Below are positions 4,176-49,739 of a DNA stretch of 64,000 bases, piece after piece. Numbering within the stretch: the first letter of the stretch is position 1; each line of letters opens with the position of its first letter. The notes under the pieces are model-generated. The model worked only from the letters and a program-made list of their open reading frames with translations, did not search any database and was not told the DNA's origin. The position numbers and the translations under genes were made by a program. Source of the DNA: a bacterium (lineage in GTDB: Bacteria > Electryoneota > B3-LCP); contig JAPKYS010000054.1 in NCBI GenBank assembly GCA_026394195.1, positions 20,583-84,582 of the forward strand. The letters are read 5' to 3'.

Positions 4176-4392
4176 GAGAACATTATCCACTATTAAGTGA
4201 TCAGGTTAATATTTGTCATTCGCTTCAGAACCTTCCGGCATGAGCTTTGCGATTATTTATTTTTTCCCATAAACTCAAGTGAATCGTGCAAATTGCAGCA
4301 GATTCAGCATAATTTGGCTCCTTCCCGCCACCTGTAAATGGTGGGACAGACTAAAACCTAATATCAACGATGCTAACCTCACGGAGATCAGA

Positions 4393-16191: not shown

Positions 16192-16193
16192 CC

Positions 16194-17744: not shown

Positions 17745-17745
17745 C

Positions 17746-33397: not shown

Positions 33398-33420
33398 TCT
33401 GCTGAGCAGGATAAAAGTAA

Positions 33421-33455
33421 GCGGTCAGGACGCAAGTCCTGACCGCTTTTTATTT
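33421..33455 (+). terminator. Rho-independent terminator GCGGTCAGGAC-GCAA-GTCCTGACCGC followed by TTTTTATTT
   Basis: Perfect 11-bp stem, GNRA-like loop, T-run, 24 nt after the porin stop. A second family hairpin is at 33468-33493. Confidence 0.75.
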
Positions 33456-33600: not shown

Positions 33601-34869
33601 TTAATTCGTTATCTCCAACATGATCAGCTTGCGGTTCAATTGCTGCTGCTTGATCTTGGCATTGGCGTATTTGCCGCTGAAGGCTGTCTTAATGTCCCGG
33701 TACAGGTCCCTCGCCTGCTGGTATTTGTCCGCCTTAGCCCAGAGCAGGTAATCCAGCGTTTGATCCGTCGCCACGTTCTCCTTGCTGCGGTTGGAACACG
33801 ACTTGACCGCGTCGGCGACCGCAAACTGCAGGTCTTCAAGCTGATCCTGGTCGAACGTGCCGGTAATGTTGAAGATTACTTTGTATTGGATTCCCTTCTG
33901 CAGGTCGTCTTTCCAGTAAGCCATCACTCGGGAAAGCACCTTGTCGATGGCGTCTTTAATCGCCTCTTCCGTCACGACTTCGGGTGGAGCCGGACGATCG
34001 TACGAATATCCAGTCTCCGTCCCTAACAGCCTGCCGGTTGTGGTCTCGAAGGCGCGCACGGTCACTGAGGCTTTCCGGGTTTCCGTCGAACCCTGCATCC
34101 CTGTGGCGATGCTGACAGTATAGGTGACATAGACGTCCGAACCGATCGATTGAGCCACCTGCAGCGAGACGTCATCTCCCGCTCCCTTGATCAACTTCAT
34201 GGTCGAACCGTAGTTGTTCAGGAAATCCTGCTGTTCCGGTACGATGACTTCGTAGCGCCGCGCGGTCAGATACGATTCGATGGAACGCGCCGCCTGCTTG
34301 AGTTCGCTCTGGTTGTCCAGAGCTTCCAGCGGATTTCCCCCTTTGGGCACTTCCGGCAGCACCAGGATCTGCGGAAGACCCAATTCAGCAGCCAGATCCG
34401 TCCCTGCAACGATCACTCCCAGCGTGACCAAATCCTCCTTGAGCAGTCCCACGTTGACCCGGAAAACCTTCTCGATCTTCAAAGATTTCCCATCAGCCAT
34501 CTTGGCGCGCAGGGTAAAGTCCTGCGCTTCCCAGGCGATATACTTGTTGACGTTGTTCAAGTCGAAGAAATTCTGTTCCTGCAGTGCAAATCGGCTCTTT
34601 TCCTCAGGAGCGGTCAGAATGGGATCTGTTCCCATGTACAGGCAGAAGTACAACGCCGACTTCTTGGCGTCGTTGATCGCGTTGACCTCCTGCTCTTTTT
34701 TGCTGCCCGTACCGATGCCGGCAGCTTGAATCATCCATTCCGTGGGCGAGTAGGATTCCACGAAACTGGCTTGCCGGGATTGGGGCAGGTTTCCCTGTGC
34801 CATTGCATTGGGCGTCAGGAAAGAAGCAGCGATCAGAACGACCAGAACATATTTTAAGACAGAACGCAT
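33601..34869 (-). CDS. Secreted multi-domain protein with LPP20/FlgP-like (TolB-N-like) domains; paralog of the 36759-37901 gene
   Basis: Signal peptide. IQAAGIG...EVNAINDAKKSALYFCL resembles the LPP20/FlgP A..A..A.RNA motif. The C-terminal region VTVRAFETTTGRLLG aligns with VSVRALETSTGQIIS of the paralog. Confidence 0.45.
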   Translation of the reverse strand: MRSVLKYVLVVLIAASFLTPNAMAQGNLPQSRQASFVESYSPTEWMIQAAGIGTGSKKEQEVNAINDAKKSALYFCLYMGTDPILTAPEEKSRFALQEQNFFDLNNVNKYIAWEAQDFTLRAKMADGKSLKIEKVFRVNVGLLKEDLVTLGVIVAGTDLAAELGLPQILVLPEVPKGGNPLEALDNQSELKQAARSIESYLTARRYEVIVPEQQDFLNNYGSTMKLIKGAGDDVSLQVAQSIGSDVYVTYTVSIATGMQGSTETRKASVTVRAFETTTGRLLGTETGYSYDRPAPPEVVTEEAIKDAIDKVLSRVMAYWKDDLQKGIQYKVIFNITGTFDQDQLEDLQFAVADAVKSCSNRSKENVATDQTLDYLLWAKADKYQQARDLYRDIKTAFSGKYANAKIKQQQLNRKLIMLEITN

Positions 34870-34948
34870 AAGTCCTCCGGGTATTCAAGTACAATATTAT
34901 ATCGTCAGGGAGATCCCGACGAGCTTATCTGTGTTTGAGGCTTCCAAA

Positions 34949-36658
34949 CTAATTGCCCATGGCGCCTCGAGCCATCTTCAAGGGATCATAGCTTAGCGAA
35001 GGCAGCGACCAGGTCAGGTAAACCTGAAACCCCAAACCGCCGAACTGTGCTTTAGGGAGATCCCAATTCGAAACGTCTTGCTCCGCACCATCCGATTTAT
35101 AGGTCCAAGACTTGGTTTCACCCGCTAACCGGTAGCCAGCGCCGACGCCCAGGTTCAGGTCATAGGAAAGCGCAATTTCCATGTTGGCGTTGAACACCAT
35201 GATGAAATTGTCGATGCTCCAACTGTAGTCATGGGAAGTTCCATTATCCATCCCGCTGCCGGAAAAACTGTACGCAGTATATTCCCCCAAAGCTTCCAGG
35301 CCTAAGTGGAAGCGGTTGGCGTAGAACTTCTTGACCAACCCGCCGCCGACTCCCCAGTTCAAGCCGCCCGGTACGTCTTCACCGTACATTTTCCAACCCT
35401 TCAGCTGCCCGTATCCGGCTTCTCCAAAGAGCGCGAAATAAAACTGAGAGATGTTAGTGCTGCGCGCCAGATTGTAGTTGAACCAGAGTTGTCCGCCGTA
35501 GAAGTTGGTTTTGATGTCGTCATCAAACCAATTCAGCGTCTGACCATTCGATTCATAGGTGGCATTCTTTACTGTAAAAGGCAGGTAGACCAATCTGAAA
35601 GACAGATCGATCGGCAGCCGGGGGTGTTCAAGCGCCAACTGGCCCCTCTCGTACCTGCCGCCAATGAGTACCCGGGCTCGAGAATTTGCCGGTTTGTCAC
35701 GGTTATCCGCCACTCTGGAAATCCTCACCATGCCCAGTTTCTTCTGCAGCATCGATCCGTCGGGTTTTTCGATGAATTCCGCCACGATGTACTTATCGTC
35801 AACTCCCAAGCCTTCCTTTTTACCCATACCGAATTCCACCCAGCCCGCCCCGGTATTGGTAATGGGGTTGGTGAGGCGAAACTCCTGGATCTCCTGCGTC
35901 GCCACCTTTAAATTCTTGGCTAACGCCTCGGCGGCAGTATAAAAAGCGTACTCTTCGCCTGACAGCGATTTCCCTGCGTAGCGGATGTTTGTTGCGCTAA
36001 GTTTAGCGAATCCACTTCCTGCCGCATCTTTTTTCGCGAGCAGTTGTACGCTGGATCCAATGGTGTCGGTTTTGATAGAAAACCATAAAATTCCGCCCTT
36101 CAGGTCGTAATTAACCGTGTTGGCGGATGCCGATTCATACTTTTTTGCTTCCGAGAGCACCGGCATATAGATGTAGGCTGAATTCATGATGGCTTTCAAG
36201 TCTTCAGCCGTGATGCCTGATTCTTTTGCTTTTTTTACGATGAAAGAGTTGCGCTCAACTTCGCTGACCAGATTCTGCGCGCGCATTTCTTTTTCTAGAT
36301 CGACGAAGCGCATGATCTCAGGAGCCAGCACCTCGTTCATCATTTGCGCTAATGCGTCCAAATCCGTGACGCCGCGCGCCAATATCTGCTGCTTGAAATC
36401 AGCTAAAATCGCATCTGGTAGCGGATTATAATCGAAGCGGCTCATGCTCATTTCGTTATTAATAGCGTTGAGCAGGAATGCATCCTGATCGGCGTTTAGC
36501 TGGGCGCCACCCAATTTTAAGACCGCGTCAACGTAGGAGATGGATTTGCGCTGATATTTTGCCTGAGTGTCCTGAGCGTATGGTGTGTTGTAACTGACGG
36601 CAAGTATCAGAAACAGGATCAGACCGCTTAAAATTCCTCTGTGGCAGCGAAACCGCAT
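34949..36658 (-). CDS. Predicted outer-membrane beta-barrel protein with N-terminal helical domain (Wzi/YjbH-like architecture, tentative)
   Basis: Signal peptide. About 250-aa helix-rich N-terminus. C-terminal half has amphipathic beta-strand periodicity with aromatic girdles (YGGQLWFNYNLA, GLEALGEYTAYSFSG, FQVYLTWSL). Confidence 0.4.
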   Translation of the reverse strand: MRFRCHRGILSGLILFLILAVSYNTPYAQDTQAKYQRKSISYVDAVLKLGGAQLNADQDAFLLNAINNEMSMSRFDYNPLPDAILADFKQQILARGVTDLDALAQMMNEVLAPEIMRFVDLEKEMRAQNLVSEVERNSFIVKKAKESGITAEDLKAIMNSAYIYMPVLSEAKKYESASANTVNYDLKGGILWFSIKTDTIGSSVQLLAKKDAAGSGFAKLSATNIRYAGKSLSGEEYAFYTAAEALAKNLKVATQEIQEFRLTNPITNTGAGWVEFGMGKKEGLGVDDKYIVAEFIEKPDGSMLQKKLGMVRISRVADNRDKPANSRARVLIGGRYERGQLALEHPRLPIDLSFRLVYLPFTVKNATYESNGQTLNWFDDDIKTNFYGGQLWFNYNLARSTNISQFYFALFGEAGYGQLKGWKMYGEDVPGGLNWGVGGGLVKKFYANRFHLGLEALGEYTAYSFSGSGMDNGTSHDYSWSIDNFIMVFNANMEIALSYDLNLGVGAGYRLAGETKSWTYKSDGAEQDVSNWDLPKAQFGGLGFQVYLTWSLPSLSYDPLKMARGAMGN

Positions 36659-36758
36659 GATGCCTCCGGTGTTGGGTTGAAATACTTGGTAATTTTAAAC
36701 TTATTTGTCTATTTTGGGCAACAATTAATGAAAGGTTGAGAGTCCCTTCTTCGTGGAT

Positions 36759-37901
36759 TCAGTTCTGCGGCGCGGTATAGCGGGCAGTCACCTTGTCTTT
36801 GGTCGTTTCAGAAACTGCAAGGTTGGGTAAATGATCCAATTTCAGCGCCACCAGGTGGATGTTTTCCGAGTAGTTGAAGCTGAAAGTCGACGTCTTCCCT
36901 TCCTGAAATCCTTCGTCTTTGACCTCCGAGTCCCGGAAGCGGACGTTATTCAGGTAGTTCTTTACCTTCATGTACTCATCCACGTTTGGGATGCCGTCCA
37001 CTTGAATGGTGATTTCGCTGGCTTTCTCCTTGCCGTAAGCCGCCAATTGCTCGAAAAAGTCCTTGCCGAAGGCTTTCGCGGCAGCCTTACTCAAAGCATC
37101 GAAGGAGGCTTTTTCGGGTGTGGGTCCCGTTCCGATGATGCCTTCCATAGGAGCGGCATACTGAGAAATAATCTGTCCCGTCGAGGTTTCAAGGGCGCGT
37201 ACACTCACCCAGCAGGTATAGATATAGACCGTTACCGGTCCAGCAAATCCGGACACCTGTTTGGAGTCCCCCGCTTTCAGCGTGACCGTACCCGGGATAA
37301 CAAGATTGGAGAGCAGGGCATAGCCGATCTTGCGAGCCGCCGCCATATCCTGATGCTGAGCCGCCGCGGTCAGATCGGCTTCCATACCACTTACGGCTGA
37401 TAATTGCGACGCATCGCGCACGTCAAATTTGGCTTTGACCAGCTTGGAAATCAACAAATCCGCCATCCGCTGATCCGAAACCACCTGCCCGTCGAATTCG
37501 TTGACGAAACCGACCACGCAGGAGTAATTGCGCAGGACTTTGGCGGCAGCCTCCGGCGTGATCTCCTTGCTGACTTCGCATTCCACCTGCAAGACCAGGT
37601 ACTCCTTCTCCATCTTTTCCGAAAGAATCTTGCTGCTCTTCACGTAGCCGTTGACCATGGAGAGAACGTCATCGTTCGCCATCATGAAATCCTGAACCGC
37701 TGTCTGGGCTTTGATTTGAACTCCCAGAACCTGTTCGACGGCGTTGCGCTGAGCATCCACCAGGGCTTCTTCACGCGCTGCGGGCATGTCATTGTTGAAA
37801 ACGGTCGCTTCGCCGCGTGCGGTGATTTTTACGACCGGCGCTTCTGCAAACGCTACGCCGATCATGGAGATGAGAATCAGTGGGATGAGTATCGATTTCA
37901 T
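36759..37901 (-). CDS. Secreted protein with N-terminal LPP20/FlgP-like domain; paralog of 33601-34869
   Basis: ARGEATVFNNDMPAAREEALVDAQRNAVEQVLGVQIKAQTAVQDF reproduces the LPP20/FlgP signature. Signal peptidase I site AFA-EA. Confidence 0.5.
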   Translation of the reverse strand: MKSILIPLILISMIGVAFAEAPVVKITARGEATVFNNDMPAAREEALVDAQRNAVEQVLGVQIKAQTAVQDFMMANDDVLSMVNGYVKSSKILSEKMEKEYLVLQVECEVSKEITPEAAAKVLRNYSCVVGFVNEFDGQVVSDQRMADLLISKLVKAKFDVRDASQLSAVSGMEADLTAAAQHQDMAAARKIGYALLSNLVIPGTVTLKAGDSKQVSGFAGPVTVYIYTCWVSVRALETSTGQIISQYAAPMEGIIGTGPTPEKASFDALSKAAAKAFGKDFFEQLAAYGKEKASEITIQVDGIPNVDEYMKVKNYLNNVRFRDSEVKDEGFQEGKTSTFSFNYSENIHLVALKLDHLPNLAVSETTKDKVTARYTAPQN

Positions 37902-38049
37902 AGTTGCCTCAAGAATATAGAGGTGTTCAGCAGTGATCGTGATCTTGGGGTGTATGGAAATAAAAAAGGCAAAACCACCCCGTTTTGCCCCGTTATACTC
38001 AAAGTTAGATTTAATCGTTCCCCGCCGTCTTCGGCTGTCCTGCCGTACT

Positions 38050-38547
38050 TTATCGGCGAGTGGAAAGGTGCGCCAGGTAATATACGTTGGCTACGATGGC
38101 CAACTGCGCCACTACCTGAACTACGGTGGAAAATAAATACCATACTGATCCCGAGACGATGATGGTATCTTCCGGCTTTAAAGTCGGGATGAGATTGCGG
38201 TCTCCGGTTTTCAAGTACTTGCGAATGTTTACGTCGATCACTTCGCTGCCGGAAGACGCGCCGCGCACCAACTTGACGTTATCCAACCGGCTCTTATCCG
38301 CTGGTCCGCCCGCTACCGAAATCAAGGTGATCAGATCCGTATCCGTGGGCACCACGTACTGACCGGGCTTCACCACTCTCCCCCAGACGTTGATGATCAT
38401 CATGAGCTGGTTTTCGTCGCCGATGATATAGCGCGCAGCAGATTCACCATATTTCGAAATGGTAGTTATCGGCGGTTCCTCGGCAGCTTTCGTGGTCAAT
38501 GCTGCGGAAAATAACAGTAACGCAAAGAGCAGAAATCGTTTGATCAT
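38050..38547 (-). CDS. SLBB-domain polysaccharide-export-like protein (mini-Wza/GfcC-like) with C-terminal hydrophobic helix
   Basis: YIIGDENQLMMIINVWGRVVKPGQYVVPTDTDLITLISVAGGPADKSRLDNVKLVR matches the SLBB/Wza D2-D3 pattern I.V.G.V..PG.Y.....L...I..AGG......V.L.R. The C-terminus LFSTVVQVVAQLAIVANVYYLAHL is helix-like. Signal peptide. Confidence 0.45.
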   Translation of the reverse strand: MIKRFLLFALLLFSAALTTKAAEEPPITTISKYGESAARYIIGDENQLMMIINVWGRVVKPGQYVVPTDTDLITLISVAGGPADKSRLDNVKLVRGASSGSEVIDVNIRKYLKTGDRNLIPTLKPEDTIIVSGSVWYLFSTVVQVVAQLAIVANVYYLAHLSTRR

Positions 38548-38591
38548 CTCGTAACCTTGATTGGGAAATCTCTTAACGTTCGTGTTTAGTT

Positions 38592-39365
38592 TCAGTTAAG
38601 GTTGAATTGCACGGCGGCTTCACTGCCTGACGGCAGAAGGACCGATGTGGCGCCCACCACGTCCACCTGGTATCGATAAGTTCCCGCTGTCAGCGGACCG
38701 ATAAAGATGCTGGTCAAGGGGAAAAACTCCTGGTGGTTTTCCAGAAATATCGGCGTCCACACACCACTTTCAAGGCGATTCAACCGGACGATAAACCCGC
38801 TGGTGACGGTCGGATCCAGGTGATTGTAACTCCAGGACAAAATCAAACTGTCCCCCTGTGCCACGGGATTGGAGAGTACTGGTTTGTCCATAAGGCGATA
38901 ATACGCCTCTGCCGATAAGGCGCTCTCATTACTGCTTTCGTCCAACGCGGTCACCCAGTAATAGAATCCCTGCGAAAACCCGGTCTGAGAATTGGGCGCC
39001 AGGTTGGCGTCTCGGTCGGTATATTCCGTCAGCTCCAATCCGTCGGCGATGATCTGCTTCTCGGATGAATCTTCCGACATACGGTAGAGGCGGTATCCCG
39101 CCAGATCCAGAGCAGCCGAAGGGAGCCAGCTCAGGTAGATGTAATTGCCTTCGGGGACAGCATCGATGCCGGTCTCGATCGAATCGGTCTCGGCGCTGCG
39201 CGGGGTGAACTGCATCTGCGCGGGCGGTTCGGTGTCCGCAGCGAACTTTTCCTTGCCGCAGCCGGAGAATAAACTCAACGCGATCAGAGCAAACAGGCAG
39301 ATTTGAACCGTTGTCCGCTGCTTTTTATCGATGTTCAATCGATCCTCGAAATGACCTGTCGTCAT
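38592..39365 (-). CDS. Lipoprotein with fibronectin-III-like domains
   Basis: Lipobox LFSGC. Two beta-sandwich-like segments with W..Y cores. Start overlaps the PorV-like stop. Confidence 0.45.
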   Translation of the reverse strand: MTTGHFEDRLNIDKKQRTTVQICLFALIALSLFSGCGKEKFAADTEPPAQMQFTPRSAETDSIETGIDAVPEGNYIYLSWLPSAALDLAGYRLYRMSEDSSEKQIIADGLELTEYTDRDANLAPNSQTGFSQGFYYWVTALDESSNESALSAEAYYRLMDKPVLSNPVAQGDSLILSWSYNHLDPTVTSGFIVRLNRLESGVWTPIFLENHQEFFPLTSIFIGPLTAGTYRYQVDVVGATSVLLPSGSEAAVQFNLN

Positions 39366-39367
39366 GA

Positions 39368-40429
39368 TTAGAATTGATAACTGATGGATAACCGGTGAGC
39401 ATTCCCTAACTCAGCCTTCAGAAATGCGTAGTCGCAAAAGAGATGCCAGTAGTTGATCCCGAACCCAGCCGTCCAGACGCCGAAGTCGATGTCGTTCCAT
39501 TTCCCCGAAACCAACTCGCCCCAATCCAACCGGGTGAACCCCATACGGAAAAAGAGGGTACGATCGTAGATGTATTCCAAGCCGAGGCGGCCATCGTATT
39601 GGTATCTCGTGTTGGAGACGCGCTCGAAACTGAATTCGCTCTTGATGGACGGAATTTTATGCCGGTAGGCGAGTCCGATGCGCAGATTCTGGGTGATGAC
39701 GTCGGTGTTCTCCCCGCTCCACTGAATGCCGGTCTTGGTGACGTCCTGGTAGGTCATCCCTAAGGCAAATTCACCTAAGTATGGTTTGGCGAACATATCC
39801 GCCAGCGAAAACTTGATCTGAAAGCCGAGGTCCGCTCCCAAACCGAAAGCCTCTTCGGTGTAAAGCTTCTGCCGGATGATTTTAACGCTGGCTCCGTAGG
39901 GAATTTCGATGGGGATTTCGAACAGTGCCCATCCAAAATCCAGATTGACCTTGTTCATCCGGGCAAAGCTGATGAAGACCGCGTCTTCGGCGTCGCTGAA
40001 GTAACCGGAAGGGACGCCGTTAATCAGATTCTTGCGTTGTTCCAGCGAATACCCTGAATAGTCCGGGAAGATGGGAATTTCATCGACCGCCAGACGGATC
40101 CAGTGTATTCCCAATGCCGCTCCGGTAATGGGAATGACCGCGCCCAGCACCGAATGCTGCGCCAGCGGATTCCCAAAAGTTCCGAATTGGTTGGAGTACA
40201 TCCCCCAGACAGTGATACTGGGCACGCGCGCAAGTCCCGCCGGATTCCAGTAAAATGACGAGGGATCTTCCGCCAGAGCGCAGTAGGCTCCACCCAGACC
40301 CAGCGCCCGCCCGCCCACGCCGATCTCCAGAAATTCTCCGGCGTATCGCGTCGCCCGGCTGACCGGAATCAGGCTGATCATTCCGGCAGCTATCAGAAAA
40401 ATACCAACTGTCCAGCGTCGCATCATCAT
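39368..40429 (-). CDS. FadL/PorV-superfamily outer-membrane beta-barrel; PorV-like (T9SS shuttle) by gene context
   Basis: N-terminal hatch motif LEIGVGGRALGLGGAYCALAEDPSSFYWNPAGLA corresponds to the FadL GLGRAYSGEGA..D....NPAL motif shared by PorV/PorQ. C-terminal SISYQF beta-signal. 9 nt downstream of the PorU-like gene. Confidence 0.5.
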   Translation of the reverse strand: MMMRRWTVGIFLIAAGMISLIPVSRATRYAGEFLEIGVGGRALGLGGAYCALAEDPSSFYWNPAGLARVPSITVWGMYSNQFGTFGNPLAQHSVLGAVIPITGAALGIHWIRLAVDEIPIFPDYSGYSLEQRKNLINGVPSGYFSDAEDAVFISFARMNKVNLDFGWALFEIPIEIPYGASVKIIRQKLYTEEAFGLGADLGFQIKFSLADMFAKPYLGEFALGMTYQDVTKTGIQWSGENTDVITQNLRIGLAYRHKIPSIKSEFSFERVSNTRYQYDGRLGLEYIYDRTLFFRMGFTRLDWGELVSGKWNDIDFGVWTAGFGINYWHLFCDYAFLKAELGNAHRLSISYQF

Positions 40430-40438
40430 CTCTTAGGG

Positions 40439-43400
40439 CTATCCTTTGCGTAATTTCGCCATTTTCATCGTCTTTTCGATCTTGGTATCGCCGCGCCTGG
40501 CCATGATCTTATAAAAGTAGACTCCGTTGGCAATCGTCGATCCATCTTCATCCAATCCGTCCCAGTAAATTTCACCATAGTTGATTTCCTGAGCGGAGTT
40601 ACTGTAGAGTGTGCGGATCAACCGGCCCGAAACGGTGTAGATACGGATGCGGACCGGTTCGGTGGTCTGTTCGGTCAACCGGTAGGAGAAATAGGTCTTG
40701 TCGTTAAACGGGTTGGGGTAATTGCCTATGAAATCCAGCTTGAACTGTCCCACTACGGTGAACTGAATGCTGGCGGAACCGGTATTGCCGGCCAGATCGT
40801 GCGCTACCACCGAAACCGTGTGATTTCCGGTGGCGAACGTTGGGTTGATAGACAGGTTGAACACCTGACCGCTGTTTTCTATCCCGACGCTGACCAGGTT
40901 GGTATCCACCGCCACGCCATCCACCGAGATCCAGTAAGTACTGGTCTTAACGTTCACTCCGCCGACGTCCTGCACCAGGGCAGAAATCTTCGGCTGCATG
41001 GGAACGTACCCACCCTCAGTATAGATCTGTCCTTCGACGCTGAGCTCGATTTTGGGACCCTGATGGTCGCCGTTCTGCAGGATGGTAAACAGACCGGTTG
41101 AATGAGTCGAAACCGAATAACGGTACTTGACCGGTGGTGTGAAGGAAAGAGTATCCACCACGCTGTTCAAGCACTGCCAGAAAGGCTGCTCGCCGTTCTG
41201 CAAATGAATATACGTCTCGCTGTTGTCTGTCAGAGTATCATTTTGCACCTGTTGATCGACGCTGAGCTTCATCGAATCGCCGACGATCTGAATGCTTCCC
41301 AACAGATCGACTTCAAATCCCAGACCCGATGGCGACCCGTTGGAATCGGGCATGGCGAAGAAGAGCCCGTTCTGCATGGTCGGGATGGAGAGATCGTCTC
41401 GCATCCGGTAGATCATCACGCCCTGCCCGCTGACGCCTCCGGGTGGAATGAACAGCCGGAAAGAATCTCCCAAAGTCAAGGTGTCGGCGGTTCCCGTACT
41501 CGGGGAAATTGAGAAATGGTCGATCAGCAGCTGCTGTTGATAGAGAGCCGTGGAATCGAAACTCCCCCAGCCGGATTCATTGATAGATATTTCCAGATTG
41601 TGCCAGCCTGGATTCAGCGTCGAAATCACGTAGGCTTCCTGAGTCTGGTTAAACGGGAGGTTACGGATGATCGCCGTACCCAGTGGAACCAGAGCTGCGT
41701 CATGGAGATAGAAACGAACGTCCAGAGAATCTATGGTGGTTTGCCCCAGATTTTTCACTTGCACGATCAAGGCGGCCTGATTCTCCCGCATCCCCATGGT
41801 CAAGCTGCTGTCCACCCAGACCGGATTGGCGCGGCTGTCCAGGAAGGGAAAGTTCTTGTCTTCAGAAGTGGTCAAATTCCCCGACGAATCCTCTACCACC
41901 ACCCAGGCGACGATGCGGTCGGTAGGAGCGTAGTGATACGTGGCTGAATCCATCGGCGTCGTCGTATGGTACCAGGGTGGATTGACGGCGGGACTCATGG
42001 GCAGCGAGTCGTGCGGGACGATGGGAATGCCCTGGTTGGTTTCGATGATGTAATGCATCCGGGCTGAAGCTATCCCCTGAGCGTCCAGAATCCGAGCTTT
42101 CAGCGTGAAGGTATCCCGCGCGTAGACCGGTTCCGGATCGGTGGATAGTGAGTCGATGACGGAACCATCGGAGTAGGCATCCAGAAGGTACAGTGGAGCG
42201 ACTCCACGGTAGGTGGTTGATCCGATGGCATCCCAGAAACTTAGGCGATAACTGCCGCCCGAAAGGAAGGAGCTGTCGCCCAAAGCGGGCAGCGGAAACA
42301 CGGCACGCAATCCATCCGCGTAGGGAATCAGCGGAGTTTCATAAGGCGGTCCACCCAGTGGACCGAATTGCAGAGCCGGGTAATTATTACTGTCATAAAC
42401 CCGCAGCATTCCCTGGTAGCCGGAATAATTCCCCGGAACCAAGATAGTGATCGTATCGCCGCTGGAAGAGAACTGCGGTGAATACTGCACTGGATTTGAG
42501 TATCGGGTCGAATACGCCAGCTTTACCGATGGATCGCCCAGCAAATTCATCAGATGGATGGTATCGAACGCTTCGACGGACTGCCCCTGCTGCCCCCAGT
42601 AGGAATAGAAAGCGATCTTGGCAGCATTGACGACCTGTCCCAGCGACAGATTCTGGTCATCATAGATCAGCCCCACCAGAGTTTCCTGCAGGTAGCTTCC
42701 GTTTAGGAACCAGCCCAGACCGGTCGATCCGAGTACGGCAATTGCGCCTCGCTGCGGCACGAAAATAAATTCCTCGCCCAGCGTGGAGGCGTCCTGCAAG
42801 GCATCGAAAGCGCCGATGAAACAGGTGAAGTTGGTGACGAAGGGGTATTTGCCGAAGTTGGTAAGCTGGGGCAGATTATCGATGCGGAACAGGGAGTTAT
42901 CCGACCAGACGGCTCCAGCGCCGTGACCGTTGTAATCGACTGCTAACGCTCCCTGGTCCAACAGGTCGATCAGATCTGTTGTCGCGCCGTAAAATGGGTT
43001 GGTGGTCGGATCGGTCGCAAGACGTTCCGGCAGAACGTCATCGTCGAGTTGGTCGATGACTGCCTGACTGACCGACAGGAAGGTGTAGTTCTCTATCCCG
43101 CCGGTTCCGGAGACGAAGAGGTGCGTATTACGCCAGGCTCCGGGGCTGGGATTGGTATCGTACTCCTCTAATTTGGCGAGATAGTTATCCAACTCCTCCG
43201 TGTCGCGCGCCGAGATGCGTCCCACCGCCACGTCGGGGATTAAATCATCGTCCAGCAGCCCATACCAGAAATCGCTGGCGACAGATCCGTACGCCTTGGT
43301 TTGTATATAATGCGCCGGCATCAGATTCCCGCCGTTGCCGAAGATATTGCGTGTGTCGTAGGATCCGTCGCCGACTAACAGCAGGAACTCCGGTGGTTCT

Positions 43401-45466
43401 GGCAGCGCCAGCAGAAGATCTTTGATCGCCTGCGGATTATAGATTCCGTCCGAGAAGCTGTTGAAGACCTGGTCGATGAACACCAATTCCGTGCGTCCCA
43501 ATCCAGCCTGGCGGCGCTGCACCAACCCATCCAGAGCGGCGTCGTTCTCGAAATCCCGGTGAGCTACGATCAGCATCTTGATGGGGGGCCCCAATGACAA
43601 CTCCGCCAAAAGATCGTTGCCCTCGACCACCTGTGCTGAGTCGGGCTGCAATTTGGCGGAAGGCGTCAAGGCAACGTATTCCGGATCGCCATAGGGTCGA
43701 TCCTGAAAATGGACCTGATAGAATGTCGTATTATTGGCTCGGTAGGGGATGACCGAACCATTGATCACCTTGGACTGGCCCAGTTTGTAGATGCTGATAT
43801 CCGGCGAGGTAAAACCATCGACCCGGTAGTCGACCAGCGTGTCCGCCGCCGTTTCAGGAGACTTGAAGCGAATTTGATCATTGTAAGCCTTGTACAACCG
43901 CTGATAGGTCACTTCAAACCAGTTCAGCAGGAAGGTATCGTTGGGACCTGCGGGTGTATCTACAGGACAGAATATCGAGAGATTGTTATTGCCGTGGTGG
44001 ACGTCTCCAGGACCTATCCCCTCTTCGGAATAGAGGACCACGCCGGTTTGCCCCACCCACCAGGATGCTCCGGATGAACCTGCTTCCAGAGCCGCAGAGG
44101 TCTGGTCGTTCAGGATGACGTAGCCGTGATGCTGCCCTCCCAACCCGAAGATATCCGGATAGGTCAACCCCTGCAAAGCCACCTTGACCCGCACGTCGAT
44201 CAGAGCGTTCACATCGGGGTAGGGCAGGAAGCAGTTGTAAAGTTTGGTCTGTGACGCCGAAACGCCACCGTCCCAATACCAGTGCTCCTTCAGCGAATCC
44301 GGTCCGACCTGCGAGAGCCGGTTGAAGTACTGGTTCAGCTCGAAGTGTTCCCAATAGGGGTAGGAAAGCGCCCGGTACATTTTCAGAGGATCGACCTCGA
44401 CAATCTCACCGGTTTCTTCCACCAATCGGCTCCCCAGATTCCCTCCCCAGGACAGCCAGTAAACGTTGATGTCCGTGTAAAGATCGCTCCAGATCTGAGG
44501 ATTCTCTGTGGAAGAGGTCCCATGCAGCTTGTCGCCCCAGAATTCGACATAATCTCCTTCGTCGAAGCGGCCGTCTGCTTCTCCGGCGACGTAGATGGAC
44601 AGTTCCTGACCTTTGTTTTCCAACCGGATGGTGCGAGGATCGACTCCGGACAAATTGACACCGTAAGCAGACAAATCATCTGAACTCAGGTGATACAAGC
44701 CTCGGGTGGAAACGTAGATTTTGAGTTGGGTGCCGGTGAACTGGCTGGCGATGGCGGACTGCGAAGCACCACGGGTACGGCTTACCGGCAGGTGCAAAGC
44801 TCCGCTTAGCGATGCAACGGTGCCGGGAAGCAGGCTTTGAGTCGTGCCGCCTCCCGGTTGTACGGGGTATTCGATGCGAAATTTAATCGAGGTCAGATAG
44901 GTCAGCGACTTGGTGCGGGCGTCGAATCGAACCGGCGAGAATTGCAGCGTCGACAGTGGGACGCCGCGATGTTTTCCCAGCGGCGTCAGATCCGCCCAGC
45001 GGTCAGAACGAACCGGGGCGGCAGGCGCATTGGTTCGGCGGCCCGGAACGGTTTTCGCTGTTACGGCCGGTTTTGCCGCATCGGATTCGGTCAGCACTTC
45101 GTCCACCGGAGCGCGCTGGAGATCGGCATCGACCGGGAGCAGAGCCGTCCTCGCGTCTAAGATCTTCAGCGAGAGCGTGCGCGCCTCTCCCGGCAGCACC
45201 ATCTGGTAGACGGGCAGCAGGCGTTGATCGCTTCCGGCGACCAGAGGCAGTCTGCCCATCTGCACCTTGATGCCCGACGAACTGCTCAGGCATTCCGGTT
45301 TCGGGAAGATGATCTGCGCCTCGATAACGCCGGGCGATTCCTTGATGACCTTCAACACGGGATCTGAAGTCACAACCGCTTCGGGAAGGCTGTTCCCGAC
45401 CAACTTGGCGACGGCGTAACTGATCAACAATCCCGGTATGACGATGTAAAGCGCTTTCCGGAGGGT
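40439..45466 (-). CDS. Giant C25-family peptidase with T9SS CTD; PorU-like (T9SS C-terminal signal peptidase/sortase) candidate. Track ORF to 45553 uses a weak TTG; GTG at 45466 gives a proper signal peptide.
   Basis: Central C25 domain (about nt 42523-43483): LLLVGDGSYDTRN, FWYGLLDDDLIPDVAVGRI, His in VDYNGHGAGAVWSD, Cys in FVTNFTCFIGAF. C-terminal NPFNDKTYFSYRL...RRGDTKIEKTMKMAKLRKG, a T9SS CTD-like domain. PorV-like gene immediately downstream, as for porU-porV in Porphyromonas. Confidence 0.55.
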   Translation of the reverse strand, partial: TLRKALYIVIPGLLISYAVAKLVGNSLPEAVVTSDPVLKVIKESPGVIEAQIIFPKPECLSSSSGIKVQMGRLPLVAGSDQRLLPVYQMVLPGEARTLSLKILDARTALLPVDADLQRAPVDEVLTESDAAKPAVTAKTVPGRRTNAPAAPVRSDRWADLTPLGKHRGVPLSTLQFSPVRFDARTKSLTYLTSIKFRIEYPVQPGGGTTQSLLPGTVASLSGALHLPVSRTRGASQSAIASQFTGTQLKIYVSTRGLYHLSSDDLSAYGVNLSGVDPRTIRLENKGQELSIYVAGEADGRFDEGDYVEFWGDKLHGTSSTENPQIWSDLYTDINVYWLSWGGNLGSRLVEETGEIVEVDPLKMYRALSYPYWEHFELNQYFNRLSQVGPDSLKEHWYWDGGVSASQTKLYNCFLPYPDVNALIDVRVKVALQGLTYPDIFGLGGQHHGYVILNDQTSAALEAGSSGASWWVGQTGVVLYSEEGIGPGDVHHGNNNLSIFCPVDTPAGPNDTFLLNWFEVTYQRLYKAYNDQIRFKSPETAADTLVDYRVDGFTSPDISIYKLGQSKVINGSVIPYRANNTTFYQVHFQDRPYGDPEYVALTPSAKLQPDSAQVVEGNDLLAELSLGPPIKMLIVAHRDFENDAALDGLVQRRQAGLGRTELVFIDQVFNSFSDGIYNPQAIKDLLLALPEPPEFLLLVGDGSYDTRNIFGNGGNLMPAHYIQTKAYGSVASDFWYGLLDDDLIPDVAVGRISARDTEELDNYLAKLEEYDTNPSPGAWRNTHLFVSGTGGIENYTFLSVSQAVIDQLDDDVLPERLATDPTTNPFYGATTDLIDLLDQGALAVDYNGHGAGAVWSDNSLFRIDNLPQLTNFGKYPFVTNFTCFIGAFDALQDASTLGEEFIFVPQRGAIAVLGSTGLGWFLNGSYLQETLVGLIYDDQNLSLGQVVNAAKIAFYSYWGQQGQSVEAFDTIHLMNLLGDPSVKLAYSTRYSNPVQYSPQFSSSGDTITILVPGNYSGYQGMLRVYDSNNYPALQFGPLGGPPYETPLIPYADGLRAVFPLPALGDSSFLSGGSYRLSFWDAIGSTTYRGVAPLYLLDAYSDGSVIDSLSTDPEPVYARDTFTLKARILDAQGIASARMHYIIETNQGIPIVPHDSLPMSPAVNPPWYHTTTPMDSATYHYAPTDRIVAWVVVEDSSGNLTTSEDKNFPFLDSRANPVWVDSSLTMGMRENQAALIVQVKNLGQTTIDSLDVRFYLHDAALVPLGTAIIRNLPFNQTQEAYVISTLNPGWHNLEISINESGWGSFDSTALYQQQLLIDHFSISPSTGTADTLTLGDSFRLFIPPGGVSGQGVMIYRMRDDLSIPTMQNGLFFAMPDSNGSPSGLGFEVDLLGSIQIVGDSMKLSVDQQVQNDTLTDNSETYIHLQNGEQPFWQCLNSVVDTLSFTPPVKYRYSVSTHSTGLFTILQNGDHQGPKIELSVEGQIYTEGGYVPMQPKISALVQDVGGVNVKTSTYWISVDGVAVDTNLVSVGIENSGQVFNLSINPTFATGNHTVSVVAHDLAGNTGSASIQFTVVGQFKLDFIGNYPNPFNDKTYFSYRLTEQTTEPVRIRIYTVSGRLIRTLYSNSAQEINYGEIYWDGLDEDGSTIANGVYFYKIMARRGDTKIEKTMKMAKLRKG

Positions 45467-45877
45467 CACTTTTACGTTTAGAATTTGGGACCTTAGGTGG
45501 GATTTTGTGCTCAATTGCCTGATTAAATTAACCAAGTGGCAGCACAATTGCAAGGCAAATTATCAGAATTTAGACCTCAGTTTGTAAGATGGTGGAAGAA
45601 GAGTAGAGGTTTTTTTTAAATTCGTCATTCTTCAATCTTCAATCTTCAATCTCCAATTCGCAGCTGGGTGCCCCACAGCTCTGCTGTGGGTTGCTATGCT
45701 GGAGAAAACCGTAGTCGAGGTCGTCTGGCTTGCCATCCCTTCGGGGCCTGACCCCGACGGGAGTCAGTCATTCCGGCAAGCGAAGCGCGTCCGGAATCAC
45801 CTTGCCGTTACCGCCAACCTCGCCCCGCCCTGAAGGATGCGCCTTTTTTCTCGTGACTCGTGACACGTGACTCGTGG

Positions 45878-46116: not shown

Positions 46117-46971
46117 TTAGTCTGCCTTAGGGAACCATAGCATAGTAGCTCCAATGTGCTTATAAATAAATGACGAAAAGAATCTCTGCTTCACCCAAGG
46201 GCGAAGTGAATCAGGAATCGGTCCAAAATTTGCTTCTGTTACTTTGTTAAGGTCAAAACTCCAAATCTCATCGTTTCCGCCAATCTCTTTGAGGGCGCGA
46301 AGAAGATTTTTATTTGAATCCGCAAGAGAAGTCATGGGATATTCAGCCAGTTTATTTTTCAAAGAAGTGAAATTATCCTTGCTTATCTGCTCCTCTTCAC
46401 TATGCAAGAGGAAATACTCAGAATCCTCAGTAAAGGTAACAGATTTATGCCGTCCCGTAATCTTTTTGACGTCAAGGTGGGGGACCATGTCTAAAAGCCT
46501 ACCCTCCTGCCATGCAAGGTATAGATGTTGTTTCTGTAGAGTAGAGTTGGTAGCGTAAAATGTCGGGTAATTTTTATCTGCAAGGCCCTTTAAACGGTCC
46601 CATTGATGATAATCATCCACATATTCTTTAGCAGCATTTCGGGTAATGAAGGGAATCTTGAAACGATAAAATTCTTTACCCCAATGCTTCCACTCACTTG
46701 CCTTATCCGTAGTTAAAAGCCCAGAAAGCTTATACTGAAGGAAAAAGTTGCAACCTTCAGGATCAACGAGTTCAGTAGAGGGGAGCCAATCAAAATAGAA
46801 AGCAGTATCCCATCCAAGATTGAATTCAGCCCTCAGAGAAGGAACAATTGGAAGAATCCACACTCCTCTCTGTTTAACTATGTACCGAGTATATGCAGTA
46901 TTTACTGCTTGTTGAAGTTGAGATTCTGAGAAATCCGGTTCGCGCATAGAGTTCCTAATTCCATATCCCAT
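46117..46971 (-). CDS. Hypothetical protein (AT-rich island gene B, 284 aa)
   Basis: ORF in an about 40% GC segment. ATGA overlap with the upstream gene. Confidence 0.5.
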   Translation of the reverse strand: MGYGIRNSMREPDFSESQLQQAVNTAYTRYIVKQRGVWILPIVPSLRAEFNLGWDTAFYFDWLPSTELVDPEGCNFFLQYKLSGLLTTDKASEWKHWGKEFYRFKIPFITRNAAKEYVDDYHQWDRLKGLADKNYPTFYATNSTLQKQHLYLAWQEGRLLDMVPHLDVKKITGRHKSVTFTEDSEYFLLHSEEEQISKDNFTSLKNKLAEYPMTSLADSNKNLLRALKEIGGNDEIWSFDLNKVTEANFGPIPDSLRPWVKQRFFSSFIYKHIGATMLWFPKAD

Positions 46972-47504
46972 TAATTTGTTTCAATATCGTAATCTCCCTT
47001 CTTAGGATTAAAAAGAAATTTAACCTCTTGGGGGTAATCCTTCGCTGCAATTAAAAAAATTCGACGAATTTCTGCTATTGGTATTCGCCATATACAGTCA
47101 TTGCGATCATAATCTGAAACCACAAAAACGTCGCTCCAATTTCTACTCGCATCTCTAACTACAATGCTTGTGTACGCATGAATGAATTGGTTGGCAATAT
47201 ATCCAGGCTTTTTGATCTCGAGAATCTCTTGGTCCAAATTATAAAGCTCCCATATTTTGTGTCCATTTAGTTGAGTCACATTTTTGCCATGCGCCTGACA
47301 TGAGAACACGTTTAGCAGGTGTTCGCGAGTAGCTGTTGAGACTAGGCATAACTCAACCATTCTACGCACTATAAAGAAGCCTATCATAATATCTCGTTCG
47401 ATGATGCACTCAGCTCTATGGCTCCAGCGAGGTGGTTTAGGAACTCGGCGAAGGCTCCACGCAATGCGTTTAAGTTCTTCTTTCCAGTAACAGGACTCAA
47501 TCAT
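46971..47504 (-). CDS. Hypothetical protein (AT-rich island gene A, 177 aa)
   Basis: ORF translationally coupled to gene B. No family recognised. Confidence 0.5.
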   Translation of the reverse strand: MIESCYWKEELKRIAWSLRRVPKPPRWSHRAECIIERDIMIGFFIVRRMVELCLVSTATREHLLNVFSCQAHGKNVTQLNGHKIWELYNLDQEILEIKKPGYIANQFIHAYTSIVVRDASRNWSDVFVVSDYDRNDCIWRIPIAEIRRIFLIAAKDYPQEVKFLFNPKKGDYDIETN

Positions 47505-48434: not shown

Positions 48435-49457
48435 TTGAGCGGAGGTTCTCCCGTGGCCATTACTCCCAGCTCCAAAGTCATCCAGGAAATCACTCGCCAG
48501 ATTGAAGAGCAATCGGCGTTTGTGGATGATCTGGTCGGACAGATACAGAACGAAATCGTCGGCCAGAAAAAGATGGTCGAACGGCTGCTGATCGGTCTTT
48601 TGGCAGACGGTCATATCCTGTTAGAAGGCGTCCCCGGTCTGGCGAAAACCATGGCGGCGAAGTCGCTGGCTATGGCGATCCAGGCGCGCTTTCAGCGCAT
48701 CCAGTTCACCCCCGACCTGCTCCCCGCCGACCTGATCGGCACCCTGATCTACAGCCAGAAGAGCGGCGATTTCACCGTCAAGCGCGGACCGATCTTCGCC
48801 AATTTCATCCTGGCGGATGAAATCAACCGCGCCCCCGCCAAGGTGCAGTCGGCGCTGCTGGAAGCCATGCAGGAACGTCAGGTGACCATCGGCGAACAGA
48901 CCTATCCGCTGGAAGCCCCCTTCCTGGTCTTAGCCACGCAGAACCCGATCGAACAGGAAGGAACCTACCCCCTGCCCGAAGCTCAGGTGGACCGCTTCAT
49001 GCTGAAAGTCCTGATCGATTATCCTCCCCGGGAAGAAGAGCGGGAAATCTTAAGACGCCATGCGGTCGCGCACCCCCTGAATATCAAACCGGTGATCTCG
49101 ACTCAGCAGATTTTGGAAGGCCGCCGCGCCGCCGCCATGATCTACGCCGACGAAAAGATCGAAAATTACATCTTGGACATCGTCTTCGCCACCCGCCAGC
49201 CGGAACAGTTCGGTCTGGCGAAATTGAAGAATTACATCTCCTACGGAGCTTCCCCCCGAGCCACCCTCTACCTGATGAACGCGGCAAAATGCCACGCCTT
49301 CCTGCGCCACCGCGGCTTCGTCATCCCCGACGACATCAAGGAGATCGGCCCGGACGTGCTGCGCCACCGCGTCACCGTCACCTACGAAGCCGAAGCCGAA
49401 GAGGTCACCCCTGAACAGGTGATTCAGGAGATTTTCAACAAAATCGAGGTACCGTAG
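48435..49457 (+). CDS. MoxR-family AAA+ ATPase
   Basis: Walker A GVPGLAKT, Walker B ILADEINRA, sensor and VWA-interacting C-terminus. 340 aa. TTG start in the track; GTG at 48452 is possible. Confidence 0.85.
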   Translation: MSGGSPVAITPSSKVIQEITRQIEEQSAFVDDLVGQIQNEIVGQKKMVERLLIGLLADGHILLEGVPGLAKTMAAKSLAMAIQARFQRIQFTPDLLPADLIGTLIYSQKSGDFTVKRGPIFANFILADEINRAPAKVQSALLEAMQERQVTIGEQTYPLEAPFLVLATQNPIEQEGTYPLPEAQVDRFMLKVLIDYPPREEEREILRRHAVAHPLNIKPVISTQQILEGRRAAAMIYADEKIENYILDIVFATRQPEQFGLAKLKNYISYGASPRATLYLMNAAKCHAFLRHRGFVIPDDIKEIGPDVLRHRVTVTYEAEAEEVTPEQVIQEIFNKIEVP

Positions 49458-49460
49458 GAA

Positions 49461-49657
49461 GTAACCAGGTATACAAGTGAACAAGTAACCAGGTAAAATG
49501 TTGACGGCTCTTGACACCAAGTCGTTGAAACGACTAAAAAAAACGTGTCATTCCGGCGAAGTCCGGAATCTGACACGTATCGCATGACATTGTTATCATT
49601 GGTTTTAACCAATTGATTTAAACGAGCACCCGTCCGCCTCAGGCGGATCATTCGGGT
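49461..49657. repeat. Intergenic repeat cluster (GTAACCAGG module 49461-49494, GTCGTTGAAACGAC hairpin plus A-run 49521-49542, ATTCC module 49544-49578, AACGAGCACCCG module 49622-49657)
   Basis: Each module matches copies elsewhere in the window. Confidence 0.55.
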
Positions 49658-49739
49658 GTGACCAAAGGCAACATAGTCGGGGTCGCCCCTGACCCCGACG
49701 GAGGGTAGCGCGGCAGCATGTGGCCGCAGGTAACCCAAG

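Follow-up and report, generated by a model that had tools for sequence, protein, structure and literature searches.

The locus and its question

Do seven genes that lie close together on one strand form a single outer-membrane system, or are they two systems that came to be neighbours? The question is raised by a 12-kb minus-strand cluster in a stretch of bacterial DNA of 64,000 nucleotides (the window). A preliminary description had read the cluster as a PorU/PorV-like pair followed by five genes possibly linked to it. To our knowledge, Bacteroidota are the only group in which T9SS attachment is understood, with PorU, PorV, PorZ, PorQ and A-LPS as its components. In this study we show that the first four genes recur as a block of their own and that the last three are found mostly without them.

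Layout and transcription units

All seven ORFs were found on the minus strand at exactly the coordinates first given (Table 1), and nearly all of the earlier domain calls hold. The tight spacing was seen as well, with gaps between successive ORFs of 9, 2, 44, 148, 100 and 79 nt, but a reported 4-nt overlap was not found, the smallest gap being 2 nt. One or two transcription units had been allowed for; two are favoured, with a terminator-like hairpin lying in the widest gap. At the same position three relatives (L005, L006 and L011) have a similar hairpin with U-run (GGGCAAAAC...GUUUUGCCC); in L007 another strong hairpin lies between the two modules. The low-GC ORFs at 46117-47504 gave no match in Pfam, NCBIfam or PADLOC. 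All carriers of the modules are uncultured MAGs.

Table 1. Features of the 12-kb region, with positions in the window
Feature	Position	Strand	Content or basis
Module A	45553-38050	-	four genes: PorU-like C25, PorV-like barrel, tandem FN3-like lipoprotein, 165-aa SLBB protein
PorU-like C25 cysteine peptidase, 1704 aa, candidate T9SS sortase with its own type-A CTD	40439..45553	-	Pfam, NCBIfam, PDB
PorV/PorQ-family FadL-like outer-membrane barrel, 353 aa	39368..40429	-	NCBIfam PorV2, PorV_fam
Lipoprotein, 257 aa, two FN3-like domains	38592..39365	-	lipobox; PDB profile search
Secreted SLBB protein, 165 aa, one SLBB domain and conserved C-terminal hydrophobic helix	38050..38547	-	Pfam
Terminator-like hairpin between modules A and B	37966..37991	-	10 bp stem then U-run, in 148-nt gap
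Module B	37901-33601	-	three genes: FlgT_N/FlgP-like, 569-aa CsgG/PelC-like plus barrel, DUF6175
Secreted FlgT_N/FlgP(LPP20)-like protein, 380 aa	36759..37901	-	Pfam FlgT_N; PDB FlgP
Outer-membrane protein, 569 aa, predicted periplasmic helical and CsgG/PelC/FlgT-like alpha-beta part, C-terminal small OmpA/OmpW-like barrel of 8-10 strands	34949..36658	-	AlphaFold2
Secreted DUF6175 protein, 422 aa	33601..34869	-	Pfam PF19672
Bidirectional terminator-like hairpin	33419..33448	-	13 bp stem; closes module B and convergent OMP gene

Module A begins with a PorU-like enzyme and a PorV-like barrel

The most upstream candidate start of the C25 gene is the TTG at 45553; the true start may lie about 25-55 codons further in. 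The features ascribed to its product earlier, a His in GHGAG, a Cys in TCFIG and a T9SS CTD, were all confirmed by profiles and by alignment to PorU. The protein matches Pfam Peptidase_C25 over the full profile (8e-71) and the T9SS CTD model TIGR04183 at 29.3 (cutoff 23). Its top PDB match is P. gingivalis PorU (6za2, E = 1.2e-18) in two collinear stretches; His877 (NGHGAG) and Cys911 (FTCFIG) align with the equivalent PorU residues, and the C-terminal stretch aligns with the CTD region of PorU. Both catalytic residues are invariant in 13/13 C25 proteins compared, as is the CTD. The assignment to PorU stands in part: PorU is the best match in NCBIfam as in the PDB, but the NCBIfam score (NF033707; 324.9 bits, model positions 4-737 of 1095) lies below the curated cutoff of 420. 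A second C25 protein in the window, which is gingipain-like, reaches only 58 bits on the PorU model.

The barrel gene follows 9 nt downstream, and the FadL/PorV hatch motif (GGAYCALAEDPSSFYWNPAGLA) and C-terminal Phe that had been reported along with this spacing were all found. The PorV_fam model (NF033709) matches the protein end to end (positions 4-326 of 326) with 85.9 bits against a cutoff of 90, which two orthologues reach (L086, 90.0 bits; L088, 96.7 bits). Among the equivalog models PorV2 scores 100.6 bits (8e-29), PorQ 28.0 and PorV 21.8, with the protein far under each cutoff. The best matches of the pair are PorU and PorV-family models, in agreement with its description as PorU/PorV-like.

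It might be possible that module A is instead a paralogous PorU2/PorV2-type sorting system that serves a subset of cargo and is not the main T9SS attachment complex. The barrel indeed scores higher on PorV2 than on PorV or PorQ, and the PorU2 model matches the C25 protein too (202.8 bits, like PorU below its cutoff). However, in all lineages tested PorU is clearly the better of the two models for the C25 protein, and the match to PorV2 is confined to positions 18-213 of 354, whereas PorV_fam is matched over its full length; we think a PorU2/PorV2-type system possible but rather unlikely. Our literature search on PorU2/PorV2 returned nothing relevant.

A lipoprotein and an SLBB protein complete the block

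The third protein of module A has the lipobox LFSGC, whose cysteine, Cys36, shows no substitution among 11 homologues (11 loci). This part of its earlier description as an FN3 lipoprotein is firm; the FN3-like domains are weakly supported, fibronectin FN3 fragments coming out on top at E of about 1e-3 in a PDB profile search, and the protein having no match in Pfam.

The fourth protein matches Pfam SLBB (1e-7) and shows no Pfam match to Poly_export at E <= 0.1. Weak NCBIfam matches were to pepcterm_export and EpsE, in both cases to the C-terminal half of the model. As in OPX/Wza proteins (PMC9603273), the SLBB beta-grasp is followed by a C-terminal hydrophobic/amphipathic helix. Relatives of the window protein at 35-42% identity have the same helix and are encoded next to Wzz/GNVR (Wzc-type) kinase genes in EPS loci (L087, L090). 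Unlike OPX/Wza proteins, the window protein lacks the Poly_export (PES) domain and has a single SLBB domain, and its gene stands in a PorU/PorV operon and not in a polysaccharide locus; no Wzc/Wzz partner or polysaccharide synthesis genes paired with it were seen in the window. By its sequence the protein looks like a minimal OPX derivative without the Poly_export domain, and descent from polysaccharide-export proteins appears supported. A Wza-like helix had been claimed before. The SLBB domain and the conserved hydrophobic helix were indeed found, but the terminal residues of the helix are basic (STRR), so that an inner-membrane anchor is as likely as a Wza-like outer-membrane helix.

Module A recurs without module B

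We looked up the contexts of module A from SLBB homologues at least 46% identical. The four-gene block is present without module B in seven contexts outside LCP-89 (L085, L086, L088, L089, L091, L092 and L093), with different flanks in each; in L089 it is cut at the contig start and no PorV-like gene is visible. This synteny is tight and repeated, and a functional link of the PorU/PorV pair to the lipoprotein and the SLBB protein is likely. The two genes are previously undescribed partners of the putative sortase operon, and our literature search found no papers on SLBB together with T9SS. T9SS cargo with CTDs is encoded in the window at 4279-6813, 7183-10014 and 21301-23142. Neither PorZ nor PorQ was seen in the locus.

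Two further candidates for membership of module A were rejected. The gene after the SLBB gene in L085 and L086 encodes an extra beta-rich outer-membrane-like protein; it was dismissed as a conserved fifth gene because nothing in the window is homologous to it, the 380-aa protein included. The GldK/PorK-like genes that adjoin module A in L089 score 110 bits against a cutoff of 350 and were seen once only.

One system or two neighbours?

Adjacency of the two modules was found only in the LCP-89/Zixibacteria-like clade. Seven relatives (L005-L011) keep the tandem order and six of them show the whole block, L009 being a 4-kb contig with module B genes only. Seven-gene synteny is hence conserved within this clade, and elsewhere modules A and B are separate. 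The flanking genes of the clade (MoxR ... TPR-DnaX-RecR) are syntenic too, so that the juxtaposition is best seen as a single evolutionary event. It may be simply inherited gene order, and as the flanks are equally syntenic we do not read the conserved order as a sign of selection.

According to the preliminary description all seven genes might form a single system, the five downstream ones making up an outer-membrane anchoring or export device by which the attachment of T9SS cargo is coupled to a surface polymer. The genes do share one direction and stand close together, their order is kept in L005-L011, and the extra outer-membrane-like protein after module A in L085/L086 hints at a possible need for a barrel partner. 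Nevertheless we consider a single system quite unlikely: the modules are apart almost everywhere else, a terminator-like hairpin separates them in the window, the shared flanks point to one event, and module B is already missing downstream of SLBB orthologues with 62-74% identity (L091, L092). What survives of the earlier proposal is the link of the PorU/PorV pair to the lipoprotein and the SLBB protein, members of the recurrent four-gene block; the genes at 33601, 34949 and 36759 do not belong to a PorU/PorV system as conserved members. A functional link between PorU/PorV and module B is weakly supported. A lineage-specific link between the modules in the LCP-89 clade is possible, as the seven relatives keep the tandem order.

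Proteins of module B

The 380-aa protein matches FlgT_N at 32.8 bits (1e-7), above the Pfam cutoff of 28.8, and is remotely similar to FlgP chains of the PDB (8e-5). Its score on Pfam LPP20 (PF02169) is 15.8 bits, below the cutoff of 25.9; of the FlgT domains in Pfam, FlgT_N alone was found, FlgT_M and FlgT_C not being detected. The family comprises 232 representative clusters at E <= 1e-10, with an FlgT_N match in 23/30 sampled members.

The 422-aa protein belongs to DUF6175 (PF19672; 2e-9, 37.4 bits, cutoff 23), and a precomputed PF19672 assignment exists for its homologues. Between lineages that their source labels place in different phyla, this protein keeps 44-49% identity and the invariant motif RAxETTTxRLLGTETGYS. 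We found no papers on DUF6175. The two proteins had been called paralogues. A direct BLASTP comparison is near-negative (E = 0.007, barely similar), but profile-profile comparison with hhalign aligns them over 313 collinear columns with 88.8% probability (E = 2.5e-6), and at the level of sequence profiles they are distant paralogues.

For the 569-aa protein an AlphaFold2 model (pLDDT 88.6) shows an N-terminal helical/alpha-beta part and a small C-terminal beta-barrel, which bears out the helix-plus-barrel architecture proposed earlier; comparison of modelled structures also gives matches to CsgG and PelC. The protein has no Pfam family, comparisons of its profile with LPP20, CsgG and DUF6175 clusters were negative, and searching the PDB by sequence with the profiles of the barrel protein and of DUF6175 gave no match. 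CsgG/LPP20-type folds, which the preliminary description had invoked, were confirmed for the 380-, 569- and 422-aa proteins. Its analogy to Wzi and GfcD fails: the barrel of the 569-aa protein is small and OmpA-like, with 8-10 strands in the model, whereas Wzi and YjbH-GfcD anchors have a large barrel of about 18 strands (Pfam Caps_assemb_Wzi or YjbH).

Module B as an envelope module of many lineages

Outside the clade of the window module B has a wide distribution. The barrel gene is followed by the DUF6175 gene in 57/62 informative loci, from records whose titles name many phyla, and C25/PorV genes of the window's kind occur in only 5/71 loci with a barrel ORF. Mostly the module is accompanied by LPP20 genes, without a window-type C25/PorV homologue within 10 kb. 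Its neighbours in other lineages (129 proteins, 196 Pfam families) are housekeeping genes and unrelated, and no T9SS or flagellar enrichment was seen among these 129 proteins. Module B is not specifically tied to T9SS or flagella. Extended operons of other phyla add LPP20, CsgG and weak FlgO matches, and those of Kryptonia include a true CsgG gene.

Module B is best described as an independent envelope module in lineages labelled as many phyla. The 569-aa protein would anchor it in the outer membrane by way of its small OmpA-like barrel, and two secreted or lipidated partners (elsewhere up to five) would contribute SHS2 (LPP20/FlgP/FlgT_N) and CsgG/PelC/TolB-N-like domains. Rings or plugs beneath the outer membrane are the usual assemblies of such folds, and we infer by analogy that the proteins could form a periplasmic ring or lattice, tethered to the outer membrane, that serves as a structural element or scaffold. 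FlgP/FlgT-type SHS2 proteins form rings (PMC12222027).

Alternatively, module B might be a funnel of the CsgG/PelC type that secretes an extracellular fibre or a polysaccharide, given the CsgG and PelC matches of the 569-aa protein and the CsgG gene added in Kryptonia. We judge this improbable. The sole membrane element would be the predicted 8-10 strand barrel, which has no obvious pore, and no genes for a substrate, a polymerase or a glycosyltransferase are conserved beside module B. None of the window's proteins matches Pfam CsgG. The module B proteins of the window differ from the lipoprotein rings and plugs of CsgG, PelC, LptE and TraT in that all have type I signal peptides without a lipobox (the 380-aa protein included) and in lacking the CsgG transmembrane hairpins, and no curli, Pel or LPS genes lie near. 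We rejected an identity with the CsgG curli channel, which combines Pfam CsgG and a lipobox with a 36-strand pore made by transmembrane hairpins.

A flagellar accessory like the H-ring or basal disk of FlgT, FlgP and FlgO is highly improbable: FlgT_N above its Pfam cutoff, the sequence match of FlgP chains and the weak FlgO match in an extended operon speak for it, but the 25 commonest Pfam families of the 129 neighbours include no flagellar one, none was seen among the scanned window proteins or in the listed contexts, and the carriers include Cloacimonadota, WOR-3 and Fibrobacterota MAGs, lineages commonly considered non-flagellated. The likeness of module B to the Vibrio and Campylobacter flagellar rings (FlgT, FlgP/LPP20, FlgO) lies in the toolkit, that is, SHS2 FlgT_N/LPP20 domains together with TolB-N/CsgG-like alpha-beta domains, sequence matches to FlgP, structural matches to an LPHT-ring chain, and LPP20 paralogues in the operons of other phyla. 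It differs from them in having no flagellar gene context in the loci examined, no detectable FlgT_M or FlgT_C, and as membrane anchor a dedicated barrel protein outside any Pfam family.

Discussion

We favour, with moderate confidence, the explanation that the 12-kb region consists of two tandem transcription units, a proposed sortase module and a proposed scaffold module, that are neighbours in one lineage.

Module A would be a version, outside Bacteroidota, of the T9SS cargo-attachment (sortase) module. It resembles the attachment complex of Porphyromonas and Flavobacterium in the C25 Cys/His dyad, the retained CTD, the position of the gene directly upstream of a PorV-family barrel, PorU 6za2 as top PDB match and CTD cargo encoded nearby. 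It also differs from the known complex. PorU has 1156-1158 aa, whereas the window enzyme has 1704 aa and a long Ig-rich stretch inserted ahead of its CTD; the window proteins score below the NCBIfam PorU and PorV_fam cutoffs, and the host stands outside Bacteroidota. The complex described in Bacteroidota does not include a tandem FN3-like lipoprotein or an SLBB protein; PorZ and PorQ, which belong to that complex, were not seen in the locus.

The PorU-like enzyme has a CTD of its own and probably stays at the cell surface through the PorV-like FadL-type barrel. By analogy with PorU of Bacteroidota, it would remove the CTD from T9SS cargo and join the freed C-terminus to a surface glycan. The FN3-like lipoprotein and the presumably OPX-derived SLBB-plus-helix protein are constant members of the operon, and they could fill the role of PorZ/PorQ and of A-LPS delivery by holding or presenting a polysaccharide acceptor beside PorU. 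A more far-reaching version of this proposal might be possible, although we think it unlikely to hold in full: module A would then be a PorZ- and A-LPS-independent attachment system outside Bacteroidota, in which the SLBB protein and the lipoprotein present the glycan acceptor, cargo is covalently anchored to an exported glycan and not to LPS, and in LCP-89 the system may also dock on the ring of module B.

Module B looks like a housekeeping outer-membrane structure made from parts of flagellar H-rings/basal disks and CsgG/PelC rings. This is a lead; the module sits outside any flagellar or secretion context and bears on the evolution of ring-forming toolkits. Module A is likewise a lead. It would tie protein sorting to glycan export and offers a testable candidate for how cargo might be anchored in other T9SS-bearing phyla.

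Organization of the cluster

The seven minus-strand genes form two separable modules, since the two blocks occur apart across genomes. Module A comprises a 1704-aa C25 protein, a 353-aa PorV-like barrel, a 257-aa lipoprotein and a 165-aa SLBB protein, and module B a 380-aa FlgT_N/FlgP-like protein, a 569-aa barrel protein and a 422-aa DUF6175 protein. The ORFs lie exactly where the preliminary description placed them, and almost all of its domain calls were borne out by profile searches; the 4-nt overlap that it reported was not found among the measured gaps (9, 2, 44, 148, 100 and 79 nt). The nearest relatives come from candidate division LCP-89 and from a MAG that bears the label Zixibacteria. 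A hairpin and U-run lie between the modules, and similar GGGCAAAAC...GUUUUGCCC hairpins with U-runs occur at the equivalent site in three such relatives (L005, L006, L011); a fourth, L007, has a strong hairpin of a different kind at the corresponding gap. The total count of terminator-like sites does not exceed shuffled expectation, and the terminator argument draws on the length of the stem, its place between genes and its conservation.

Features of the window and of compared loci (L handles, loci in other MAGs)
Feature	Locus	Position	Strand	Remark
M1 peptidase	window	4279-6813		T9SS type-A CTD
Gingipain-like C25 peptidase	window	7183-10014		propeptide, T9SS type-A CTD
Cus-like RND efflux operon	window	14893-21042		OEP, HlyD with heavy-metal-binding domains, AcrB
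SBBP beta-propeller protein	window	21301-23142		T9SS type-A CTD
Terminator-like hairpin	window	33448-33419		brackets region
Module B	window	37901-33601	minus
10-bp hairpin, then U-run	window	37991-37966	minus	148-nt gap, SLBB gene to 380-aa gene
Module A	window	45553-38050	minus
Terminator-like hairpin	window	46084-46062		brackets region
Two ORFs, 284 and 177 aa	window	46117-47504	minus	GC 41%, window ~53%
Gene run	window	48435-52554	plus	begins MoxR, DUF58 (only these two scanned)
Kryptonia-type module B	L001	10001-20947		9-10 gene operon
Beta-rich secreted protein	L085	10524-11702		follows module A
Beta-rich secreted protein	L086	10735-11877		follows module A
Two FGE-sulfatase lipoprotein genes	L089	3867-6692		convergent to module A
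Second PorV-like gene	L091	11629-12627		two genes 3' of SLBB gene

The two ORFs in the low-GC stretch have no Pfam, NCBIfam or PADLOC match. The LCP-89 relatives lack them and have MoxR ~1 kb upstream of their C25 gene, which makes a recent insertion of the stretch probable. The gene run beyond it suggests a Bat-type operon, judging from its first two genes.

Module A is a recurrent four-gene unit

The 1704-aa protein matches Peptidase_C25 (8e-71) and bears a T9SS type-A CTD. Among solved structures it matches P. gingivalis PorU best (6za2, E = 1.2e-18), in two collinear stretches that take in the catalytic domain and, at the C-terminus, the Ig/CTD region; gingipain structures reach ~1e-8 only. 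His877 and Cys911 are invariant in 13/13 aligned homologues, and the CTD is conserved. On sequence grounds the protein is thus PorU-like, as had been proposed, and not gingipain-like. Its scores on the NCBIfam models PorU (324.9 bits) and PorU2 (202.8 bits) lie below the curated cutoffs of 420 and 450. As an internal control, the second C25 protein of the window scored only 58 bits with the PorU model; it looks like cargo because it has a propeptide and a CTD. The window holds three genes for cargo with type-A CTDs, so substrates for a PorU-type sortase exist in this organism. PorV-family models agree with the naming of the 353-aa barrel as PorV-like: its match to PorV_fam runs from end to end (85.9 bits, cutoff 90), and orthologues from two other lineages score 90.0 and 96.7 bits.

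The lipoprotein has no Pfam family in profile searches and belongs to a conserved family in which the lipobox Cys is invariant; its profile recognises fibronectin FN3 repeats weakly (E ~1e-3), so that the FN3 part of the earlier label has weak support. The SLBB protein has a signal peptide, one SLBB domain (1e-7) and a conserved C-terminal hydrophobic helix; the domain and the helix had been described. Relatives 35-42% identical share this architecture, head polysaccharide loci and adjoin Wzz/GNVR kinase genes; polysaccharide-export proteins are therefore the ancestors of the family. Profile searches found no Poly_export domain in it, unlike OPX proteins, of which this domain is the defining feature (PMC9603273). 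The helix ends in basic residues, so it could with equal plausibility be an inner-membrane anchor or an outer-membrane helix of the Wza kind.

Starting from homologues of the SLBB protein, we looked up nine contexts. The block C25, PorV-like, lipoprotein, SLBB occurs in seven of them, those of homologues at least 46% identical, and all seven (L085, L086, L088, L089, L091, L092, L093) lie outside the LCP-89 clade. The block was confirmed by tblastn in each, with different flanking genes every time; the L089 contig begins within the C25 gene and has no PorV-like gene between the C25 and lipoprotein genes. No module B was found by tblastn in these seven contexts, and contexts lacking it include SLBB orthologues 62-74% identical to that of the window. 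The four genes of module A form a genuine unit, one that recurs and is undescribed.

Some contexts carry further genes. The beta-rich proteins of L085 and L086 (380-392 aa, with a C-terminal coiled coil) are conserved (37% identical, E = 5e-79) and have neither a Pfam family nor a homologue in the window. The FGE-sulfatase lipoproteins, a single occurrence, match PorK/GldK best among NCBIfam models (~110 bits, cutoff 350). The second PorV-like gene of L091, 23% identical to that of the window, may be a PorQ-like partner.

Module B is widespread and joins module A in one lineage

We mapped the seven window proteins onto 80 loci, with 10-kb flanks, found from homologues of the 569-aa protein. 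The barrel gene is followed by DUF6175 in 57 of 62 loci with enough downstream sequence; among the names in the titles of their records are Kryptonia, Marinimicrobia, Fibrobacterota, Cloacimonadota, WOR-3, Gemmatimonadota and Raymondbacteria. LPP20-family genes accompany the pair in 42 loci, usually in the order barrel, DUF6175, LPP20 (~450 aa), LPP20 (~190 aa), LPP20 (~250 aa). C25/PorV genes are present in only 5 of 71 loci with a barrel ORF, each of them from the LCP-89/Zixibacteria-like clade. Elsewhere the neighbours are unrelated housekeeping genes (196 Pfam families in 129 proteins, each family seen at most three times), with no T9SS or flagellar family among the 25 most frequent ones listed.

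The Kryptonia-type operon (also in L012, L013, L014 and L078) is larger by three LPP20 proteins, one CsgG homologue, an LPP20-DUF4384 protein of 653 aa that matches FlgO weakly, and a fusion of a caspase (C14) with an outer-membrane barrel; the caspase is another clan-CD peptidase next to module B. Marinimicrobia-type loci (L002/L003, L020-L044) have a recurrent block upstream of and divergent from module B (a 1400-1940 aa LTD/CARDB protein, DUF6588, a TerB-DnaJ protein and Peptidase_S46), probably reflecting within-phylum synteny.

The proposal that all five genes after the PorU/PorV pair may form a module functionally linked to it is thus supported in part: the lipoprotein and SLBB genes are syntenic with the pair, and the other three are part of another module, carried by lineages whose labels name many phyla. 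Module A recurs elsewhere without module B, and module B adjoins module A in this lineage only. LCP-89-like relatives keep the wider neighbourhood (the conserved MoxR flank upstream; TPR, DnaX and RecR downstream, at 57-86% identity), and since the flanks are also conserved, the tandem order can be explained as gene order inherited within one lineage, a single event.

Possible roles of the two modules

The 569-aa protein has no Pfam family in profile searches and an AlphaFold2 model with pLDDT 88.6; the suggested likeness to Wzi, YjbH or GfcD was not supported. Of the two presumed LPP20/FlgP-like paralogs, the 380-aa protein matches FlgT_N (1e-7) and, weakly, LPP20, and its N-terminal domain matches FlgP chains at 8e-5 in a sequence search. 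The 422-aa protein is a DUF6175 member (2e-9; model pLDDT 83.3). Homologues with the source labels of other phyla share 44-49% identity with it, and the motif RAxETTTxRLLGTETGYS hardly varies. The profile of the 380-aa protein is collinear with DUF6175 (88.8% probability), and its family is separate and large (232 representative clusters at E <= 1e-10), with FlgT_N in 23 and DUF6175 in none of 30 sampled members.

Rings of FlgP and FlgT have been described (PMC12222027). Because the folds of module B characterise ring- or plug-forming proteins beneath the outer membrane, we favour, by analogy, a periplasmic ring or lattice tethered to the outer membrane. Less likely are a secretion funnel, as a pore-sized barrel and substrate genes are absent, and a flagellar accessory, as the most frequent neighbour families listed give no flagellar context.

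Together the modules are no categorically new system. In Porphyromonas, PorZ is reported to deliver A-LPS (PMC8545088); analogously, the lipoprotein and SLBB protein of module A might provide the PorU-like enzyme with a glycan acceptor or present one to it.
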